Made by a program: the position numbers and the translations under genes. This document shows, piece by piece, positions 2,821 to 30,733 of a stretch of DNA of 64,000 nt. Location: NCBI RefSeq assembly GCF_001677475.2, contig NZ_CP015229.1; one strand, given 5' to 3'. The first letter of the stretch is position 1; each line of letters starts with the position of its first letter. The DNA is from Escherichia coli (lineage in GTDB: Bacteria > Pseudomonadota > Gammaproteobacteria > Enterobacterales > Enterobacteriaceae). The notes beneath the pieces were generated by a model. That model did not search any database. It saw only the letters and a program-made list of their open reading frames with translations, and had not been told where the DNA came from.

Positions 2821-3746
<926 letters not shown>

Positions 3747-3899
3747 TTTCACTTCACGACACTCCAGCCAATTTTGGGAGGAGTGTCGTACCGTTACGAT
3801 TTTCCTCAATTTTTCTTTTCAACAATTGATCTCATTCAGGTGACATCTTTTATATTGGCGCTCATTATGAAAGCAGTAGCTTTTATGAGGGTAATCTGA

Positions 3900-4793
3900 A
3901 TGGAACAGCTGCGTGCCGAATTAAGCCATTTACTGGGCGAAAAACTCAGTCGTATTGAGTGCGTCAATGAAAAAGCGGATACGGCGTTGTGGGCTTTGTA
4001 TGACAGCCAGGGAAACCCAATGCCGTTAATGGCAAGAAGCTTTAGTACGCCCGGAAAAGCCCGACAACTGGCATGGAAAACCACCATGCTGGCAAGAAGT
4101 GGGACTGTCCGTATGCCGACTATTTATGGTGTGATGACGCATGAAGAACACCCCGGCCCCGATGTCCTGCTACTGGAGCGGATGCGTGGTGTTTCGGTGG
4201 AGGCACCAGCCCGAACACCAGAACGCTGGGAACAACTCAAAGATCAAATCGTTGAAGCCTTACTGGCCTGGCACCGTCAGGACAGTCGCGGTTGCGTCGG
4301 CGCGGTCGACAATACTCAGGAAAATTTCTGGCCCTCATGGTACCGGCAACATGTTGAAGTGCTATGGACCACGCTCAATCAGTTCAATAACACCGGTCTA
4401 ACGATGCAGGATAAGCGGATCCTGTTTCGTACTCGCGAATGTCTCCCGGCATTATTTGAAGGCTTTAACGACAATTGTGTGCTGATTCACGGTAACTTCT
4501 GTTTACGCAGCATGCTGAAAGATTCGCGCAGCGATCAGTTACTGGCGATGGTCGGGCCGGGACTAATGCTTTGGGCACCGCGAGAATACGAACTGTTCCG
4601 ACTAATGGATAATTCTCTGGCGGAAGATTTGCTCTGGAGTTACCTGCAACGCGCGCCAGTGGCGGAGTCATTCATCTGGCGGCGTTGGTTGTATGTGTTA
4701 TGGGATGAAGTTGCGCAACTGGTTAATACCGGACGATTTAGTCGGCGCAACTTCGATCTGGCATCAAAATCACTCTTGCCGTGGCTCGCCTGA
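3900..4793 (+). CDS. ycbJ: Putative phosphotransferase/kinase-like protein YcbJ
   Basis: 297 aa ORF, conserved position; 3' end overlaps convergent elyC by 24 bp. Confidence 0.7.
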   Translation: MEQLRAELSHLLGEKLSRIECVNEKADTALWALYDSQGNPMPLMARSFSTPGKARQLAWKTTMLARSGTVRMPTIYGVMTHEEHPGPDVLLLERMRGVSVEAPARTPERWEQLKDQIVEALLAWHRQDSRGCVGAVDNTQENFWPSWYRQHVEVLWTTLNQFNNTGLTMQDKRILFRTRECLPALFEGFNDNCVLIHGNFCLRSMLKDSRSDQLLAMVGPGLMLWAPREYELFRLMDNSLAEDLLWSYLQRAPVAESFIWRRWLYVLWDEVAQLVNTGRFSRRNFDLASKSLLPWLA

Positions 4794-5549
4794 CGAACCT
4801 TTTAGCCACTGCCAGATGCGGCCAAGCGTTTCATAGCCAACACGATCGCTATGCATCAACCAAACCGGAGAAGGGATTGCCCGTTCCCACGGATTAAGCG
4901 GCGAGTTGATGGCCAACTGATTCGCCGGGGCTGGCAGCGGATTTAGCCCTTCCTGCTGAAAAAAGATCATCGCCCGCGGCAGATGTGATGCGGAGGTCAC
5001 CAGCAGGAAAGGGGCGTCACCAATTGCCTGTTTCACTGCCGCAGCTTCTTCTTCGGTATCTTTTGGCAAATCCAGAGTGATAATTTGCTCGCGCGGCACG
5101 CCCAGCGATTGCGCAACTCGGGCACCTACTTCGGCTGTACTCACCGTATTGGTTTTTGCTACGCCTCCCGTGAAGATCAGTTTTGATCCCGGATTTTCGC
5201 GCCATAAGCGAATACCTTCATTCAGGCGGGGCAGACTGTTATTGATTAAATTCGAGCTTGGTGCCCACTGCGGGTTCCAGGTATAACCACCTCCGAGCAC
5301 CACGATATAGTCCACTTTTTGCGAATTATTCCATGTCGGATAGGTGCTTTCGATGGGACGCAGCAGGCGGTCGGCTACCGGTTGCAAACTCAATAACAAG
5401 AGTGCCAGCCACCCAATGCTAATAAAAATCTTCCCGGTTTTTTGAAAACGGCTAAACCACAGCAGCGCCAGGCCAGCGCCAATAATCAACAACATCAGCG
5501 GAAGTGGCAGCAACATATTGCCAATCACTTTTTTCAGTGTAAAAAGCAT
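4770..5549 (-). CDS. elyC: Envelope biogenesis factor ElyC (DUF218), N-terminal membrane anchor
   Basis: 259 aa; hydrophobic N-terminus; recalled YcbC/ElyC sequence. Confidence 0.7.
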   Translation of the reverse strand: MLFTLKKVIGNMLLPLPLMLLIIGAGLALLWFSRFQKTGKIFISIGWLALLLLSLQPVADRLLRPIESTYPTWNNSQKVDYIVVLGGGYTWNPQWAPSSNLINNSLPRLNEGIRLWRENPGSKLIFTGGVAKTNTVSTAEVGARVAQSLGVPREQIITLDLPKDTEEEAAAVKQAIGDAPFLLVTSASHLPRAMIFFQQEGLNPLPAPANQLAINSPLNPWERAIPSPVWLMHSDRVGYETLGRIWQWLKGSSGEPRQE

Positions 5550-5684
5550 CCTTTCTGGTTCCTTTTTTAACCATATAGCAAGGGATCGCCAGCGATATTA
5601 CACCAGACGGGTTCATTCTCGCCGTGGCTGTGACAAAATAGCGTCTTTATCAGAAAACGTCTTAGCCAACCGGTGGAGAAAGCA

Positions 5685-6470
5685 ATGCAGGATCGCAATT
5701 TTGATGATATTGCGGAAAAGTTTTCCCGTAACATTTACGGCACCACCAAAGGGCAGCTTCGACAGGCTATTCTGTGGCAGGATCTCGATCGCGTGCTGGC
5801 GGAAATGGGCCCGCAAAAACTGCGTGTGCTGGATGCTGGCGGTGGAGAAGGGCAGACCGCAATCAAAATGGCTGAGCGCGGGCATCAGGTCATTTTATGC
5901 GATCTTTCTGCGCAGATGATCGACCGCGCAAAACAGGCGGCAGAAGCAAAAGGTGTGAGCGACAACATGCAATTTATACATTGCGCCGCTCAGGATGTTG
6001 CTTCGCATTTGGAAACGCCCGTTGATCTGATATTGTTCCATGCGGTGCTCGAGTGGGTGGCCGATCCCCGCAGCGTATTACAGACCCTGTGGTCAGTGTT
6101 GCGTCCAGGCGGTGTGTTGTCGTTAATGTTCTACAATGCGCACGGCTTGCTGATGCATAACATGGTCGCCGGGAATTTTGATTACGTGCAGGCGGGAATG
6201 CCGAAAAAGAAAAAACGGACGCTTTCGCCAGATTATCCACGCGACCCGGCGCAGGTTTATCTGTGGCTGGAAGAAGCTGGTTGGCAAATTATGGGTAAGA
6301 CAGGCGTTCGCGTGTTTCATGATTATCTGCGCGAGAAGCACCAGCAGCGCGACTGCTATGAAGCATTACTTGAATTAGAAACGCGTTATTGCCGTCAGGA
6401 ACCGTATATTACCCTGGGGCGTTATATTCATGTCACCGCGCGCAAACCGCAGAGCAAGGATAAAGTATGA
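5685..6470 (+). CDS. cmoM: SAM-dependent methyltransferase (tRNA cmo5U methyltransferase CmoM/SmtA)
   Basis: ATG at 5685 (track ORF starts at upstream GTG 5673); SAM motif VLDAGGGEG; stop overlaps mukF start. Confidence 0.8.
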
Positions 6471-7789
6471 GTGAATTTTCCCAGACAGTCCCCGAACTGG
6501 TTGCCTGGGCCAGAAAAAATGACTTCTCCATCTCGCTGCCGGTAGACCGACTCTCTTTTCTGCTGGCGGTTGCCACGCTGAACGGCGAGCGTCTGGATGG
6601 TGAGATGAGTGAAGGCGAGCTGGTGGATGCATTCCGCCATGTGAGTGATGCGTTTGAGCAAACCAGCGAAACCATCGGCGTGCGCGCCAACAACGCGATC
6701 AACGACATGGTGCGTCAACGTCTGCTGAACCGCTTTACCAGCGAGCAGGCGGAAGGGAACGCAATTTACCGTCTGACGCCGCTCGGCATCGGCATTACTG
6801 ACTACTACATCCGTCAGCGCGAGTTTTCTACGCTGCGCCTTTCTATGCAGTTGTCGATTGTGGCGGGTGAGCTCAAACGCGCAGCAGATGCCGCCGAAGA
6901 GGGCGGTGATGAATTTCACTGGCACCGTAATGTCTATGCGCCACTGAAATATTCGGTAGCAGAAATTTTTGACAGTATCGACCTGACGCAACGTCTGATG
7001 GACGAACAGCAGCAGCAGGTGAAGGACGATATCGCCCAGTTGCTGAACAAAGACTGGCGGGCGGCGATCTCCAGCTGTGAATTGTTGCTTTCGGAAACTT
7101 CCGGAACGCTGCGTGAATTGCAGGATACGCTGGAAGCGGCAGGCGACAAATTGCAGGCTAATCTGTTGCGCATTCAGGATGCGACGATGACCCATGACGA
7201 TCTGCATTTTGTCGATCGTCTGGTGTTCGATCTGCAGAGCAAACTCGACCGTATTATCAGTTGGGGCCAGCAATCCATAGACTTGTGGATTGGCTACGAC
7301 CGCCACGTACACAAATTTATCCGTACCGCAATCGATATGGATAAAAACCGCGTCTTTGCTCAGCGGTTACGTCAGTCGGTACAAACCTATTTTGATGAGC
7401 CGTGGGCGCTAACTTATGCCAATGCCGATCGTCTGCTGGATATGCGTGACGAAGAGATGGCACTGCGCGATGAAGAAGTGACTGGAGAACTTCCTGAGGA
7501 TCTGGAGTACGAAGAGTTTAACGAGATCCGCGAACAGCTGGCGGCGATCATCGAAGAACAACTCGCCGTGTACAAAACCAGACAAGTGCCGCTGGATCTT
7601 GGTCTGGTGGTACGCGAATATCTGTCACAGTATCCGCGTGCACGTCACTTTGACGTTGCGCGCATTGTTATTGATCAGGCGGTACGTCTTGGCGTAGCGC
7701 AAGCAGATTTCACCGGACTGCCAGCGAAATGGCAGCCGATTAATGATTACGGAGCCAAGGTACAGGCGCATGTCATCGACAAATATTGA
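6467..7789 (+). CDS. mukF: Chromosome partition protein MukF (kleisin)
   Basis: 440 aa; matches recalled MukF N-terminus [18 protein letters not shown]. Confidence 0.9.
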
Positions 7790-8474
7790 ACAAGTGATGC
7801 CGGTTAAGCTGGCGCAGGCGCTGGCGAATCCGTTATTTCCGGCGCTGGATAGCGCCTTACGTTCAGGCCGCCATATTGGCCTCGACGAACTGGATAATCA
7901 TGCATTCCTGATGGATTTTCAGGAATATCTGGAAGAGTTTTACGCGCGTTATAACGTTGAGCTTATTCGTGCACCGGAAGGGTTCTTCTATTTACGCCCA
8001 CGTTCCACCACTCTTATTCCTCGTTCCGTCTTGTCGGAACTGGATATGATGGTCGGGAAAATCCTCTGTTATCTCTATCTCAGCCCGGAACGGCTGGCGA
8101 ATGAGGGGATTTTTACTCAACAGGAACTGTACGACGAACTGCTCACCCTGGCCGATGAAGCGAAACTGCTGAAACTGGTGAACAACCGTTCAACCGGTTC
8201 AGACGTTGACCGGCAGAAGTTGCAGGAGAAAGTACGTTCTTCGCTCAACCGTCTGCGTCGTTTGGGCATGGTGTGGTTTATGGGCCACGACAGCAGCAAG
8301 TTCCGCATTACCGAATCGGTGTTCCGCTTCGGAGCCGATGTGCGTGCTGGCGACGATCCCCGTGAAGCACAGCGTCGCCTGATTCGTGATGGCGAAGCAA
8401 TGCCGATTGAAAATCATCTGCAACTCAACGATGAAACCGAAGAGAGTCAGCCAGATAGCGGAGAGGAAGAATAA
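7770..8474 (+). CDS. mukE: Chromosome partition protein MukE
   Basis: ATG at 7770 (MSSTNIEQ) overlapping mukF 3' end; 234 aa. Confidence 0.85.
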
Positions 8475-11400
8475 TGATTGAACGCGGTAAATTTCGCTCA
8501 CTGACGCTGATTAACTGGAACGGTTTTTTTGCCCGAACTTTTGACCTCGATGAGCTGGTTACGACGCTCTCCGGCGGTAACGGGGCGGGTAAATCCACCA
8601 CCATGGCGGCGTTCGTTACGGCGCTGATCCCCGACCTGACCCTGCTGCATTTCCGTAACACCACGGAAGCCGGGGCCACCAGCGGTTCGCGCGATAAAGG
8701 TCTGCACGGTAAGCTGAAAGCGGGTGTCTGTTATTCGATGCTCGACACCATTAACTCGCGCCACCAGCGCGTGGTGGTCGGTGTGCGTCTGCAACAGGTT
8801 GCCGGACGCGATCGTAAAGTGGATATCAAACCGTTTGCCATTCAGGGACTGCCGATGTCGGTGCAGCCGACACAGCTGGTGACCGAAACTCTGAACGAAC
8901 GCCAGGCGCGCGTGCTGCCGCTTAACGAGCTGAAAGACAAGCTCGAGGCGATGGAAGGCGTGCAGTTTAAACAGTTCAACTCCATTACCGATTACCACTC
9001 GCTGATGTTCGATCTGGGCATCATCGCGCGTCGTCTGCGCTCCGCATCTGACCGTAGCAAATTCTATCGTCTGATCGAAGCTTCGCTGTATGGCGGGATC
9101 TCCAGTGCCATTACCCGTTCTCTGCGCGACTACCTGTTGCCGGAAAACAGCGGAGTGCGTAAAGCGTTCCAGGACATGGAAGCGGCACTGCGTGAAAATC
9201 GCATGACGCTGGAAGCGATTCGTGTCACCCAGTCGGACCGTGACCTGTTTAAGCATCTGATCAGCGAAGCCACCAACTACGTGGCGGCGGACTACATGCG
9301 TCACGCCAACGAGCGCCGTGTCCATCTCGACAAAGCCCTGGAGTTTCGTCGCGAGCTACATACTTCGCGTCAGCAACTGGCGGCTGAGCAGTACAAACAC
9401 GTCGATATGGCGCGTGAGCTGGCAGAGCACAACGGTGCCGAAGGCGATCTGGAAGCGGATTATCAGGCGGCCAGCGATCACCTGAACCTGGTGCAAACCG
9501 CACTGCGTCAGCAGGAGAAGATCGAACGCTACGAAGCGGATCTCGATGAGCTGCAGATCCGTCTGGAAGAGCAAAACGAAGTGGTGGCAGAAGCCATCGA
9601 ACGCCAGGAAGAGAATGAGGCTCGTGCGGAAGCTGCCGAACTGGAAGTGGACGAGCTGAAAAGCCAACTTGCTGACTACCAGCAGGCGCTGGACGTCCAG
9701 CAAACGCGCGCGATCCAGTATAACCAGGCGATTGCTGCGCTTAATCGTGCCAAAGAACTGTGCCATCTGCCGGACTTAACCGCCGACAGCGCCGCCGAAT
9801 GGCTGGAAACCTTCCAGGCGAAAGAGCTGGAAGCGACTGAAAAAATGCTCTCTCTTGAGCAGAAAATGAGCATGGCGCAAACCGCGCACAGCCAGTTTGA
9901 GCAGGCTTATCAGCTGGTGGTGGCAATCAACGGCCCGCTGGCGCGTAACGAGGCGTGGGATGTCGCTCGCGAACTGCTGCGCGAAGGGGTCGATCAGCGT
10001 CACCTGGCAGAGCAGGTTCAGCCGTTGCGGATGCGCTTAAGCGAACTGGAACAGCGTCTGCGCGAACAGCAAGAAGCTGAGCGTCTGCTGGCAGATTTCT
10101 GCAAACGTCAGGGCAAGAATTTTGACATTGACGAGCTGGAAGCTCTGCATCAGGAGCTGGAAGCACGCATTGCCTCTCTTTCCGATAGTGTGTCTAACGC
10201 CCGTGAAGAGCGCATGGCACTGCGCCAGGAGCAGGAACAGCTGCAGTCTCGCATTCAGAGTTTGATGCAGCGTGCACCGGTTTGGCTGGCAGCGCAAAAC
10301 AGCCTCAACCAGTTGAGCGAACAGTGCGGCGAAGAGTTCTCTTCCAGCCAGGATGTCACCGAATATCTGCAACAGTTGCTGGAGCGTGAGCGCGAAGCCA
10401 TTGTTGAACGCGATGAAGTAGGCGCGCGCAAAAACGCCGTCGATGAAGAGATCGAACGTTTAAGCCAGCCAGGTGGTTCTGAAGACCAGCGTTTGAATGC
10501 GCTGGCGGAGCGTTTTGGCGGCGTGCTGCTGTCAGAAATTTATGACGACGTTAGCCTGGAAGATGCGCCGTACTTCTCGGCGCTGTATGGCCCGTCCCGC
10601 CACGCCATCGTGGTGCCAGATCTGTCACAGGTAACCGAACACCTGGAAGGTTTGACCGATTGCCCGGAAGATCTCTATCTGATCGAAGGGGATCCGCAGT
10701 CATTCGATGACAGCGTGTTCAGCGTTGATGAGCTGGAAAAAGCGGTGGTGGTGAAAATCGCCGATCGTCAGTGGCGTTACTCACGTTTTCCGGAAGTGCC
10801 GCTGTTTGGACGCGCGGCGCGCGAAAGCCGCATCGAAAGCCTCCATGCCGAGCGTGAAGTGCTTTCCGAACGCTTCGCCACGCTCTCCTTTGATGTACAG
10901 AAAACCCAGCGTCTGCATCAGGCGTTCAGCCGCTTTATCGGCAGCCATCTGGCGGTGGCGTTTGAGTCTGATCCGGAAGCCGAAATCCGTCAACTGAACA
11001 GCCGTCGCGTCGAACTGGAGCGGGCGTTGAGTAATCATGAAAATGATAACCAGCAGCAGCGTATTCAGTTTGAGCAGGCGAAAGAGGGTGTTACGGCGCT
11101 GAACCGCATTCTGCCGCGTCTCAACCTGTTGGCTGATGATAGCCTGGCAGATCGCGTCGATGAAATCCGCGAACGTCTGGATGAAGCCCAGGAAGCCGCG
11201 CGTTTTGTTCAGCAGTTTGGCAATCAACTGGCGAAACTGGAACCGATCGTTTCGGTATTGCAGAGCGACCCGGAACAGTTCGAACAGTTAAAAGAAGATT
11301 ACGCGTACTCTCAGCAGATGCAGCGCGATGCCCGTCAGCAGGCGTTTGCCCTGACGGAAGTGGTGCAGCGTCGTGCGCACTTTAGCTACTCTGACTCGGC

Positions 11401-26816: not shown

Positions 26817-27962
26817 TTAGCTTTGCGCGACTTTACGGGGGATAAAATCATTTGCCACCGCTTCGCCTTGCGGATTCAGCGGCTGCGGCTGGGGAATTTC
26901 CGGGATGGCGACATCCAGATGCGGGAACAGCAATTCGCCAACCCGATACGCTTCTTCCAGATGCGGGTAGCCCGAAAGCACAAAACTGTCGATGCCAAGT
27001 GCAGCGTATTCGTTGATTCGCGCGGCGACCGTCGGACCATCGCCCACCAGCGCCGTCCCGGCACCGCCGCGGACTAAGCCAACGCCCGCCCATAAATTGG
27101 GGCTGATCTCCAGATTGTCGCGCTTGCCGTTATGTAACGCCGCCATCCGCTGTTGTCCTACGGAATCCGTCCGGGCGAATGCGGCCTGTGCTTTGGCGAT
27201 AGTCTCATCATCAAGATGCGAGATTAACCGCTCGGCGGCCTGCCACGCTTCGTCGCTGGTTTCACGAACAATCACATGCAGACGAATACCGAAACGAATT
27301 TTGCGTCCATGCGCGGCAGCTTTCGCCCGCACTTGTTCGATTTTCTCTTTAACCAGTTCCGGCGGTTCGCCCCAGGTAAGGTAGAGATCTACTTGTTCTG
27401 CCGCCAGCTCCTGCGCGACATCTGACGATCCGCCAAAGTAAAGTGGCGGATACGGCTGTTGAATCGCCGGGAAGAGCAGTTTTGCTCCGCGCACATGAAT
27501 ATGTTTACCGTTGAAATCGACGGTTTCTCCCTGCAATAAACGTCGCCAGACCTGGGTAAATTCTGCCGAGGCTTCGTAGCGCTCGCTATGGTCGAGGAAC
27601 ACGCCGTCGCCTGCCAGCTCTTGTGGATCGCTGCCTGTGACCAGGTTAAACAACGCACGTCCATTTGAGAGACGGTCAAGCGTGGCGGCCTGGCGGGCGG
27701 CAACGGTAGGTGAGGTTACGCTGGGACGCAGGGCGACAAGAAACTTCAGCCGCTGCGTCACCGGGATCATCGACGCCGCCACCAGCCACGCATCTTCACA
27801 CGATCGCCCTGTTGGGATCAGCACACCGGTATAGCCCAGACGATCCGCCGCTTGCGCAATTTGTTGCAGATAACCGTGATCAACCGGACGTGAACCTTCT
27901 TCCGTTCCCAGATAGTGCCCGTCACCGTGGGTCGGTAAAAACCAGAACATATTCAGGCTCAT
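26817..27962 (-). CDS. ssuD: FMNH2-dependent alkanesulfonate monooxygenase
   Basis: 381 aa; N-terminus [20 protein letters not shown] typical of luciferase-like monooxygenases. Confidence 0.9.
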
Positions 27963-28918
27963 AATTGTTTTCCTTCCAGTTGAGTGGGCTGCCAGATGCG
28001 CTGGCGAATATCGACTTTTTTCGGCACCAGACGATTTTCATAAAACAGATCTGCCGTTTGCTGCTGTAAGGCGGCAACTTCGGCGTTAACCGGTTTGATG
28101 GTAGTAGGAGGGCGATGATCTAAATAAGAGGCAATCACCGGGGCCGGTAAGCCCATCGTTTTTGCCAGTAAAGCGATGCTTTGCTCGCGCTGGCTGCGGG
28201 TTAACGCATCGGCCTCACTAAAGGTTGCCAGTACGCCCTGAATAAAAGCGCCGTTTTTTTCTGCATACGGACGGGCAGCCAGATAAAACGATCCGGTCTG
28301 ATTGAGATCGGTGCCGTCTTTTAGCACCCGCACGCCGCCCTGTAATAATGCAGCGGAGTAGTAGGGATCCCAGATAGCCCATGCGTCGACGTTACCTTGC
28401 TGGAACGCGGCGCGGGCATCAGCGGGTGTCAGGTAAGTGGGTTGTATATCGGTAAACTTAAGCCCGGCCTGGCGTAGTGCGCGTAGTAAAAGATTGTGCG
28501 AACTGGAACCTTTCTGAAAGGCAACTTTGTGACCTTTAAGATCGGCTACGGTTTTGATCGGGCTGTTTTCTGCCACCAGAATCACTTCGGCTTTGGGCTT
28601 CGGCGGCTCGACGCCCACATATACCAAATCAGCCCCGGCAGCCTGGGCAAAGATTGGCGGAATATCTCCGGTACTGCCGAGATCAATACTGCCAACGTTT
28701 AACGCCTCCAGCATCTGTGGGCCAGCGGGGAACTCCACCCAGGAGATTTTGGTTTGCGGATAGCGTTTTTCCAGTAACTGGTGGCTTTTTGCCAGCACCA
28801 TACCAATACTGCCTTTCTGATAGCCTATACGTAACGCTTCAGGAGAGGATTCTGCAGCAACCGCAATCGTAGAGACGCTAAGTAATCCCGCCAGCGCCAG
28901 TTGAATGATGTTACGCAT
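27959..28918 (-). CDS. ssuA: Aliphatic sulfonate-binding periplasmic protein
   Basis: ATG at 28918 ([15 protein letters not shown] signal peptide); track ORF extends further from an upstream in-frame start. Confidence 0.85.
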
Positions 28919-29486
28919 GGGCATTACCTCGCAGAGACAGAAGATCGGGAACCTGAACATCGCGGCGGTGCAGCGCCTGCCAGAAAGTTTCCAGCGCGGT
29001 ATCAAGACGGGTTTGCAGATTTGGCGTGAACTGCGGCTTGTGGTGGTAATCAATCACCTGTGAGTCATCGGCAAACACGCCGTGCAGGATCTCCTGGGCT
29101 TTCAGCGCACTTAAAACTGGCTTAAGGGCATAATCGACCGCCAGCAGATGGGCCACCGTACCGCCCGTCGCCAGCGGTAGCACCACTTTGCCTTGCAACG
29201 CACGTTCTGGCAGCAGGTCGAGCAGGGTTTTCAGCGCACCGGAATAGGCGGCTTTATACACAGGCGTGGCGACAATCAGCCCATCGGCCTGTTGCAGCTG
29301 TTCGGTGAAGGTTTTGAGTGCCGGACTATCGAAACGAGCATAAAGTAGATCTTCCGGGGCGAAGTTTTGCAGATTCCAGTGATAAACCTCTACATCCAGG
29401 CCATTTAGTTTTTCCCGCGCATATTCCAGCAAGGAGCTGGAACGAGAAGGAAAGCGAGGACTACCCGCCAGGGTGATGACACGCAT
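28911..29486 (-). CDS. ssuE: NAD(P)H-dependent FMN reductase
   Basis: 191 aa; first gene of the ssuEADCB operon; overlaps ssuA start. Confidence 0.85.
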   Translation of the reverse strand: MRVITLAGSPRFPSRSSSLLEYAREKLNGLDVEVYHWNLQNFAPEDLLYARFDSPALKTFTEQLQQADGLIVATPVYKAAYSGALKTLLDLLPERALQGKVVLPLATGGTVAHLLAVDYALKPVLSALKAQEILHGVFADDSQVIDYHHKPQFTPNLQTRLDTALETFWQALHRRDVQVPDLLSLRGNAHA

Positions 29487-29687
29487 ACTCTCTCCTTATA
29501 ACCAATTGTTCTTGTTTTGTTAACATTGATAACAATTCGGTCAGTCTGACAGAGGGCGTCCGCGAGTCGAAATGATTTATCTGAGGAAGAAAAGCCAAAA
29601 AAAGCATAAAAAAAGCGCAATAAGAAAACGTTTGCTATTTATTGCCACAGGTCAATTCCCTTTTGGTCCGAACTCGCACATAATACG

Positions 29688-29722
29688 CCCCCGGTTTGCA
29701 CACCGGGAATCCAGGAGAGTTC
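29688..29722 (+). promoter_or_regulatory. pyrD leader hairpin and Shine-Dalgarno
   Basis: cccgg-tttgcaca-ccggg hairpin immediately 5' of AGGAG SD and pyrD ATG; pyrimidine-dependent leader control is a recalled mechanism, not shown by the sequence. Confidence 0.5.
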
Positions 29723-30733
29723 ATGTACTACCCCTTCGTTCGTAAAGCCCTTTTCCAGCTCGATCCAGAGCGCGCTCATGAGTTTACTTTTCAGCAATTA
29801 CGCCGCATTACCGGAACACCGTTTGAAGCACTGGTGCGGCAGAAAGTGCCTGCGAAACCTGTTAACTGCATGGGCCTGACGTTTAAAAATCCGCTTGGTC
29901 TGGCAGCCGGTCTTGATAAAGACGGGGAGTGCATTGATGCGTTAGGTGCGATGGGATTTGGATCGATCGAGATCGGTACCGTCACGCCACGTCCACAGCC
30001 TGGTAATGACAAGCCGCGTCTCTTTCGTCTGGTAGATGCCGAAGGTTTGATCAACCGTATGGGCTTTAATAATCTTGGCGTTGATAACCTCGTAGAGAAC
30101 GTAAAAAAGGCCCATTATGACGGCGTCCTGGGTATTAACATCGGCAAAAATAAAGATACGCCAGTGGAGCAGGGCAAAGATGACTATCTGATTTGTATGG
30201 AAAAAATCTATGCCTATGCGGGATATATCGCTATCAATATTTCATCGCCAAATACCCCAGGATTACGCACTCTGCAATATGGTGAAGCGCTGGATGATCT
30301 CTTAACTGCGATTAAAAATAAGCAAAATGATTTGCAAGCGATGCACCATAAATATGTGCCGATCGCAGTGAAGATCGCGCCGGATCTTTCTGAAGAAGAA
30401 TTGATCCAGGTTGCCGATAGTTTAGTTCGCCATAATATTGATGGCGTTATTGCAACCAATACCACACTCGATCGTTCTCTGGTTCAGGGAATGAAAAATT
30501 GCGATCAAACCGGTGGCTTAAGTGGTCGTCCGCTTCAGTTAAAAAGCACCGAAATTATTCGCCGCTTGTCACTGGAATTAAACGGTCGCTTACCGATCAT
30601 CGGTGTTGGCGGCATCGACTCGGTTATCGCTGCGCGTGAAAAGATTGCTGCGGGTGCCTCACTGGTGCAAATTTATTCTGGTTTTATTTTTAAAGGTCCG
30701 CCGCTGATTAAAGAAATCGTTACCCATATCTAA
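29723..30733 (+). CDS. pyrD: Dihydroorotate dehydrogenase (quinone)
   Basis: ATG at 29723 ([21 protein letters not shown]), 336 aa. Confidence 0.9.

Follow-up and report, generated by a model that had tools for sequence, protein, structure and literature searches.

An uninterrupted ssuE-pyrD spacer in Escherichia coli, most probably the ancestral form of a site at which other strains carry the elf (Ycb) fimbrial operon

The window analysed here is a stretch of 64,000 nucleotides of Escherichia coli DNA in which two divergent genes, ssuE and pyrD, are separated by a short spacer. The first gene of the ssuEADCB operon, ssuE (28911..29486, minus strand), encodes an NADPH-dependent FMN reductase of 191 aa, whose sequence matches the NCBIfam equivalog NF007859 over residues 1-191 of 191 (359 bits) and is 99% identical to K-12 SsuE (tblastn). 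On the other side, pyrD (29723..30733, plus strand, ATG start at 29723) encodes a quinone-dependent dihydroorotate dehydrogenase of 336 aa, which matches the equivalog NF003644 over residues 1-336 of 336 (653.5 bits) and is 100% identical to K-12 PyrD (tblastn). The neighbouring genes are ssuA, downstream of ssuE, and zapC, after pyrD. The divergent intergenic spacer between the two start codons (29487..29722) is 236 bp long, a separation that a sequence-only reading of the window had pointed out and that the open reading frame coordinates and family assignments confirm; the spacer is complete and, as argued below, most probably represents the unoccupied, ancestral form of the site.

In K-12, this site is occupied by elf, a cryptic, accessory adhesin operon (E. 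coli laminin-binding fimbriae, ELF / Ycb). The absence of its seven genes between ssuE and pyrD, also claimed in that reading, is borne out by tblastn searches with the K-12 Elf proteins. The ElfC usher has no match in the 64-kb window at E<=1e-10, and the same search detects ElfC in the K-12 reference and in all three of the loci from other species described below that carry the complete operon (L001, L003, L017, and L021). Likewise, the chaperones ElfD and YcbF and the subunits ElfA, ElfG, YcbU, and YcbV have zero matches in the 64-kb window at E<=1e-10. At the nucleotide level, comparison of window positions 29540-29640 with K-12 positions 2880-10030 (blastn-short, word size 6) returned only chance matches of at most 13 nt (E>=0.03), with no residual elf DNA among them. 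The 236-bp spacer also holds no deletion scar in the form of an insertion sequence (IS), a truncated gene, or junction sequence foreign to relatives with an empty site. Outgroup spacers align over all 236 bp, leaving no room for an IS or scar, and the earlier description of the spacer as free of IS, scar, and fimbrial remnants was thus accurate.

The spacer can be divided into segments with distinct histories and, presumably, distinct functions. The ssuE-proximal block of 68 bp (29487..29554) is highly similar to the occupied K-12-type alleles (~97% identity) and holds the ssuE ribosome-binding region along with the blocks TAACATTGATAACAATT and CAGAG, which are conserved across genera. The adjoining middle segment of 56 bp (29555..29610), with the blocks AAATGATTTAT and AAAAAAGCATAAA, is in register and strongly diverged in occupied alleles, and probably belongs to the region where the ssuE activator binds. 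We take the left part of the spacer to contain the Cbl/CysB-dependent ssu promoter; van der Ploeg et al. reportedly mapped the ssu promoter and the Cbl site in 1999. The next 13 nt, AAAAGCGCAATAA (29611..29623), are uninterrupted in the window and are the counterpart of the putative elf insertion point. Abutting that point is a PUR-box-like 16-mer, AAGAAAACGTTTGCTA (29622..29637, plus strand), the presumed PurR operator of pyrD. It has one mismatch to ANGMAAACGTTTKCNT, a degenerate consensus, and is the sole match to that consensus in the window at two or fewer mismatches, which is not significant alone (1.56 expected by chance). The AAACG[AT]TTGC core of this sequence is present in all but two of the loci examined, and pyrD is known to be repressed by PurR (PMC6245113).

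The pyrD-proximal part of the spacer is occupied by the PyrD leader (Rfam RF02373; 29655..29728, plus strand), which includes the -10 region of the pyrD promoter and a 5' hairpin at 29688-29709. In cmscan, the full model (1-74) scores 97.9 bits (E 1.4e-17), the gathering score being 47. The hairpin is predicted to fold when the transcript begins with C residues (-11.1 kcal/mol) but not when it begins with G (-3.5 kcal/mol), a difference that matches the published start-site mechanism of pyrD, which is sensitive to CTP/GTP (PMC6524683). A scan of 29400-29800 for consensus sigma-70 promoters returned no promoter-like site; such a scan says nothing about either the pyrD promoter or the ssu promoter, which depends on an activator. 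The pyrD leader, the PUR-box-like sequence, and the presumed ssu control DNA are all intact in the window. An open reading frame of 71 aa with a TTG start (29405-29620, minus strand) overlaps the ssuE start and the spacer, and one public assembly (L087, 2607-2822) annotates its counterpart as a gene. It is almost certainly spurious since it crosses non-coding DNA that is conserved as regulatory blocks.

As the K-12 reference we used the derivative DH1Ec169 (locus L001), in which the start codons of ssuE and pyrD lie 7,255 bp apart, with elfA, elfD, elfC, elfG, ycbU, ycbV, and ycbF between them; the gene order that the sequence-only reading had given for K-12 (ssuE, elfADCG-ycbUVF, pyrD) is correct according to this annotation. 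Two blocks of homology flank the difference. On the left, window 29300-29554 corresponds to K-12 2659-2913 (250/255 identical), and on the right, window 29624-29900 corresponds to K-12 10001-10278 (271/278 identical). Between these blocks lie 69 bp in the window (29555-29623) and 7,087 bp in K-12, and the 69 bp have no megablast-level K-12 counterpart. The two alleles therefore do not differ by a simple 7-kb gap: the window has sequence that K-12 appears to lack. Split matches among E. coli genomes all break at one right-hand position, 29624.

Within K-12, the GC content of elf is 47.4% overall, 42% in elfA, and 27% in the ssuE-elfA spacer, compared with 51-55% in the flanks. No integrase, tRNA, or IS is annotated in the K-12 elf region, which also has no terminal direct or inverted repeats; its long repeats are the paralogues elfD and ycbF. 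Of the traits of a genomic island, atypical base composition and patchy distribution are present and classical mobility features are absent.

To polarize the difference, we turned to outgroups. A PyrD scan of one genome per GTDB species yielded 390 pyrD loci, 80 of which, all Enterobacteriaceae with flanks of at most 10 kb, were sorted by tblastn with the K-12 proteins. At 69 of the 80 loci ssuE and pyrD are adjacent, with spacers of 227-256 bp (mode 247-248) save two of 356 bp. The seven-gene elf-like operon is present at three, namely those of Escherichia sp. E1V33 (L003), Pseudocitrobacter faecalis (L017), and Pseudocitrobacter vendiensis (L021), and one further locus, from a Pseudocitrobacter metagenome-assembled genome (L032), is partial, its contig ending within a ycbF-like gene. 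The remaining seven lack ssuE in the available sequence. The two spacers of 356 bp (L039 and L053), with ~110 bp more than the usual ~245 bp, come from genomes labelled Citrobacter sp. 18056 and Chryseobacterium sp. 18061; the latter label is evidently wrong or the genome contaminated, because its PyrD is enterobacterial.

In a MAFFT alignment, the unoccupied spacers are colinear from ssuE to pyrD, and the 69 bp of the window align with the rest, including the conserved blocks AAATGATTTAT and GAAAAAtGCATAA. Identity to the window spacer is 98.7-100% at E. coli empty sites (236 bp; 236/236 in ST2747), 94.5-95.8% in three other Escherichia species (exactly 236 bp), 80-83% in Citrobacter (242-244 bp), and ~73% in Kosakonia, Enterobacter, and Klebsiella (247-249 bp). 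The length of exactly 236 bp recurs in four other Escherichia lineages. For the 69 bp alone, identity is 91-100% among the empty sites of Escherichia and drops to 58-71% in other genera. Spacer divergence parallels that of ssuE and pyrD. Adjacency in the outgroups, a colinear spacer, and divergence that tracks the flanks together argue that the window spacer is the ancestral unoccupied form.

At five of the seven loci that lack ssuE (L006 of E. albertii, L014 of S. enterica subsp. arizonae, L040, L071, and L077), an open reading frame of 870 aa starting MTQQPQAKYRHDY lies directly upstream of pyrD (~200-400 bp). We take it to be PepN; as this putative PepN abuts pyrD, the whole ssuEADCB operon would be missing at those five loci. 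E. albertii has lost ssu and retains the right half of the ancestral spacer beside the PUR-box-like sequence, and this half-spacer marks a deletion endpoint inside the ssuE-pyrD spacer.

The occupied alleles indicate where elf sits. At the right junction, K-12, E1V33, and both Pseudocitrobacter species share the same arrangement: the ycbF stop codon, 10 nt, and then GAAAACGTTTGCG, which is the sequence beginning at window position 29624. At the left junction, homology was assessed as fixed-register, ungapped identity in a single pre-chosen register against a sliding null. Over window 29555-29610, K-12 is identical at 23 of 56 positions and E1V33 at 24 of 56, against a null of 14.2 +/- 3.3, and the fraction of null positions reaching these identities is 0.002-0.008. 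For the same 56 nt, the occupied Pseudocitrobacter alleles share 31-34 positions with the empty alleles of Citrobacter, beyond the null maximum of 28-30. Most gapped local-alignment shuffling tests of the 69 bp against the left ends of the inserts gave no significant result (p 0.006-0.47). In-register homology on the left thus stops at ~29610 and K-12 homology on the right begins at 29624, and the elf insertion point would accordingly fall within window 29611-29623, where the control DNA of ssuE gives way to that of pyrD. The left homology being weak (41-43% identity), this places the insertion point to within ~13 nt and does not give an exact breakpoint.

The elf-like operons of the other species occupy 2759-10000 of L003, 2677-10000 of L017, 2807-10000 of L021, and, in part, 1-519 of L032. 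The Elf proteins of E1V33 and Pseudocitrobacter are 55-86% identical to those of K-12, a greater divergence than that of PyrD and SsuE on either side. The same-site presence of the operon in two non-sister genera is also compatible with an operon of ancient standing that was lost many times by allelic replacement.

Within the species, we surveyed 5426 complete E. coli genomes. The empty junction, represented by a query of 451 bp, is intact in 1352 of them (98.4-99.8% identity among the matches listed) and was also found in several draft assemblies. A ssuE-pyrD query of 1.9 kb gives a count of 1354, most of the contiguous matches being ~97.3% identical. K-12 elf DNA is found in 4073 of the 5426 genomes (coverage of at least 80% in 3998), and elfC at an identity of at least 90% in 4036 records, the remainder having only other ushers at 60-80%. 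The numbers of genomes with the empty junction and with elf DNA add up to 5425, and this equals the number of the 5426 genomes in which anything matched; the two states are therefore complementary, and genomes with an empty site do not carry elf elsewhere. Whether direct adjacency of ssuE and pyrD is a common arrangement, a point raised in the sequence-only reading, can hence largely be answered in the affirmative, as it is found in 1352 of 5426 E. coli genomes and in nearly all other genera. One genome, VE-T9 (L091, 3083-4605), has an IS1 and a truncated ycbF pseudogene (the last ~495 bp) between ssuE and pyrD and is a genuine case of secondary elf loss. Other strains show damage to elf of another kind, with IS5 in elfC or IS1A within the operon.

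In a comparison of four segments from ssuA to rlmKL, E. coli loci mostly match the window at 96-99% identity (extremes 92.1% and 92.7%), and other Escherichia species do so at 88-96%; these identities place the window within E. coli in the strict sense. Over 25 kb, its closest relatives among complete genomes are the ivory-gull strain MEW and O158:H23 CFIAFB20140388 (98.7%), followed by a swine O139:H1 strain (98.2%), and all three are empty at ssuE-pyrD. As these best matches reach only 98.2-98.7% identity over this distance, the window strain is probably not a typical B2 strain. The 25,000 bp of window 17000-41999 span 25,713 bp in MEW (NZ_CM192120.1), in two pieces, which implies that ~700 bp are inserted somewhere in MEW relative to the window.

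The two flanks of the spacer differ in their affinities. The ssuA-ssuE segment is 98.3% identical to ST2747 and 96.0% identical to K-12, and ssuE alone is 99.7% identical to ST2747; pyrD, in turn, is 98.9% identical to K-12 and 98.0% identical to ST2747. Among E. coli loci generally, identity to the window is 92.7-98.3% on the ssuA-ssuE side (27962-29486) and mostly 97.6-98.9% in pyrD (29723-30733), with one locus at 92.1%. By this measure the window flanks are mosaic, the ssuE side being nearest to ST2747 and pyrD nearest to K-12-type strains, and recombination has thus acted at the ssuE-pyrD locus. In ST2747 (L002, 1-2063), ssuD is cut by an IS3-family element; the ssuD open reading frame of the window (26817-27962) is full length (381 aa).

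Most probably, then, the window carries the ancestral, never-interrupted ssuE-pyrD allele, and elf is an old, horizontally acquired insertion elsewhere. The 236 bp would consist of the ssuE upstream control region on the left and, on the right, a PUR-box-like operator, the pyrD promoter, and the leader hairpin that serves start-site switching. The elfADCG-ycbUVF operon of K-12 (~7.0 kb, with a GC content below that of the flanks) would be an old horizontal acquisition that landed at one point between these two control regions, corresponding to window 29611-29623, and would have spread by recombination in the homologous flanks. Its current carriers are ~75% of E. coli, one other Escherichia species, and Pseudocitrobacter. 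The window strain would have undergone no deletion at the site, both flanking genes keeping their native regulatory DNA, and its lineage may have received the empty allele by vertical inheritance, not by import. Of the two alternatives that the sequence-only reading had left standing, the insertion of elf in other lineages is thus supported by adjacency at 69 of 80 outgroup loci and by the colinear spacer, and a clean deletion in this lineage is contradicted by the divergence of the 56 nt.

The main rival to vertical inheritance, which we regard as unlikely, is that the window lineage descends from an elf-bearing ancestor and lost the operon without a scar when recombination across ssuE...pyrD imported an empty allele. 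Such a replacement would agree with the mosaic flanks, with ssuA-ssuE nearer to ST2747 and pyrD nearer to K-12, and with a spacer that is identical to that of ST2747 at all 236 positions even though ST2747 is not among the nearest genomes over 25 kb, which reach 98.7%. The ssu side, moreover, is unusually polymorphic in E. coli (92.7-98.3%), as is typical of recombination around a variable locus. Nothing demands this event, however, and the closest complete genomes over 25 kb are all empty too. Even if it took place, it would change only the lineage's history: whether inherited vertically or re-acquired by recombination, the sequence is the ancestral empty allele.

A clean in-situ deletion, in which illegitimate or short-homology recombination removed the 7-kb elf operon from a K-12-type allele with no remnant, is very improbable and already effectively refuted. 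The absence of remnants, IS, and scar is what such an excision would leave, and an early gapped alignment hinted at a weak similarity of the 69 bp to the 3' end of K-12 ycbF. We considered and rejected the 69 bp as a relic of ycbF: the K-12 stretch in question codes for part of YcbF and shows codon-level conservation with Pseudocitrobacter ycbF, and the outgroup spacers align far better, so that the resemblance is best explained by chance. Against a deletion, the 69 bp are 91-100% identical to the spacers of other Escherichia and colinear with those of Citrobacter, Enterobacter, and Klebsiella, whereas the matching 56 nt of occupied alleles are only 41-43% identical. With these 56 nt diverged in occupied alleles, deletion of elf could not have recreated the window sequence. 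The one documented deletion allele, that of VE-T9, furthermore keeps an IS1 and a ycbF stub. Finally, an assembly artefact, with the operon present in the organism and collapsed or dropped in the assembly, has a negligible probability, as the identical junction occurs in 1352 independently finished genomes, several drafts, and four other Escherichia lineages, and elf is single-copy, non-repetitive DNA of a kind that assemblers do not collapse.

Three features of the locus are mildly new: the location of the insertion point beside the PUR-box-like sequence of pyrD; the use of the same point in Pseudocitrobacter and in a second Escherichia species, where the Elf proteins have diverged further than the flanks; and the strong divergence of the ssuE-side 56 nt between haplotypes. 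They leave room for an old polymorphism maintained by recombination. Tentatively, elf may have entered once, at a single position separating the ssuE activator region from the pyrD PUR box, and passed by recombination in the conserved flanks among Escherichia lineages and Pseudocitrobacter, the two haplotypes persisting across species until the 56 nt had diverged to ~41% identity, and the window may stand for a non-B2 E. coli lineage with the ancestral haplotype. If this were so, the two haplotypes might differ in the control of ssuE by Cbl/CysB.

Wurpel et al. (2013) grouped the chaperone-usher fimbriae of E. coli according to usher phylogeny and locus and found Ycb (= ELF) operons to be associated with phylogroups A, B1, D, and E; the closely related Auf operon was associated with phylogroup B2 and described as mutually exclusive with Ycb (PMC3559732). 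For fimbrial types found at a single locus, the same authors proposed gain by horizontal transfer or homologous recombination, followed by loss or inheritance (PMC3559732). Another paper mentions elfA/elfC with phylogroup B2 and contains no statement on distribution (PMC10304320). With the phylogroup restriction of Ycb, and its absence from B2, on record (PMC3559732), the absence of elf from some E. coli was already known; the empty ssuE-pyrD arrangement is common and published, and the window is one more example of it. For annotation, the strain lacks ELF/Ycb at this locus because its lineage has the unoccupied form, like a quarter of sequenced E. coli, and not through a recent deletion. The locus may be of interest for the recombination-driven turnover of fimbrial loci and for the regulation of sulfonate-sulfur utilisation.

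Compared with known arrangements, the window is closest to other elf-negative E. coli (B2 strains such as the Nissle 1917 derivative SYNB1934, and ST2747), which share the 236-bp spacer and, among the matches listed of the 1352, are 98.4-99.8% identical over 451 bp; the window nevertheless differs from this group in that its identity to even the nearest complete genomes is no more than 98.2-98.7% over 25 kb. The spacers of Citrobacter, Enterobacter, Klebsiella, Kosakonia, and Kluyvera resemble it in gene order, orientation, conserved blocks, PUR-box-like core, promoter, and PyrD leader, and those of the first four genera differ from it by ordinary divergence (73-83% identity). The IS1-mediated deletion allele of VE-T9 likewise has no working elf operon at the site but keeps an IS1 and a ycbF stub, neither of which is found in the window. 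The K-12 elf locus has the same flanking genes, the 68 bp beside ssuE, and 99 bp of the pyrD control region (97-98% identity); unlike the window, it has seven chaperone-usher genes and an upstream region of 27% GC where the window has 69 bp, and the 56 nt adjoining its junction are 41% identical to those of the window.
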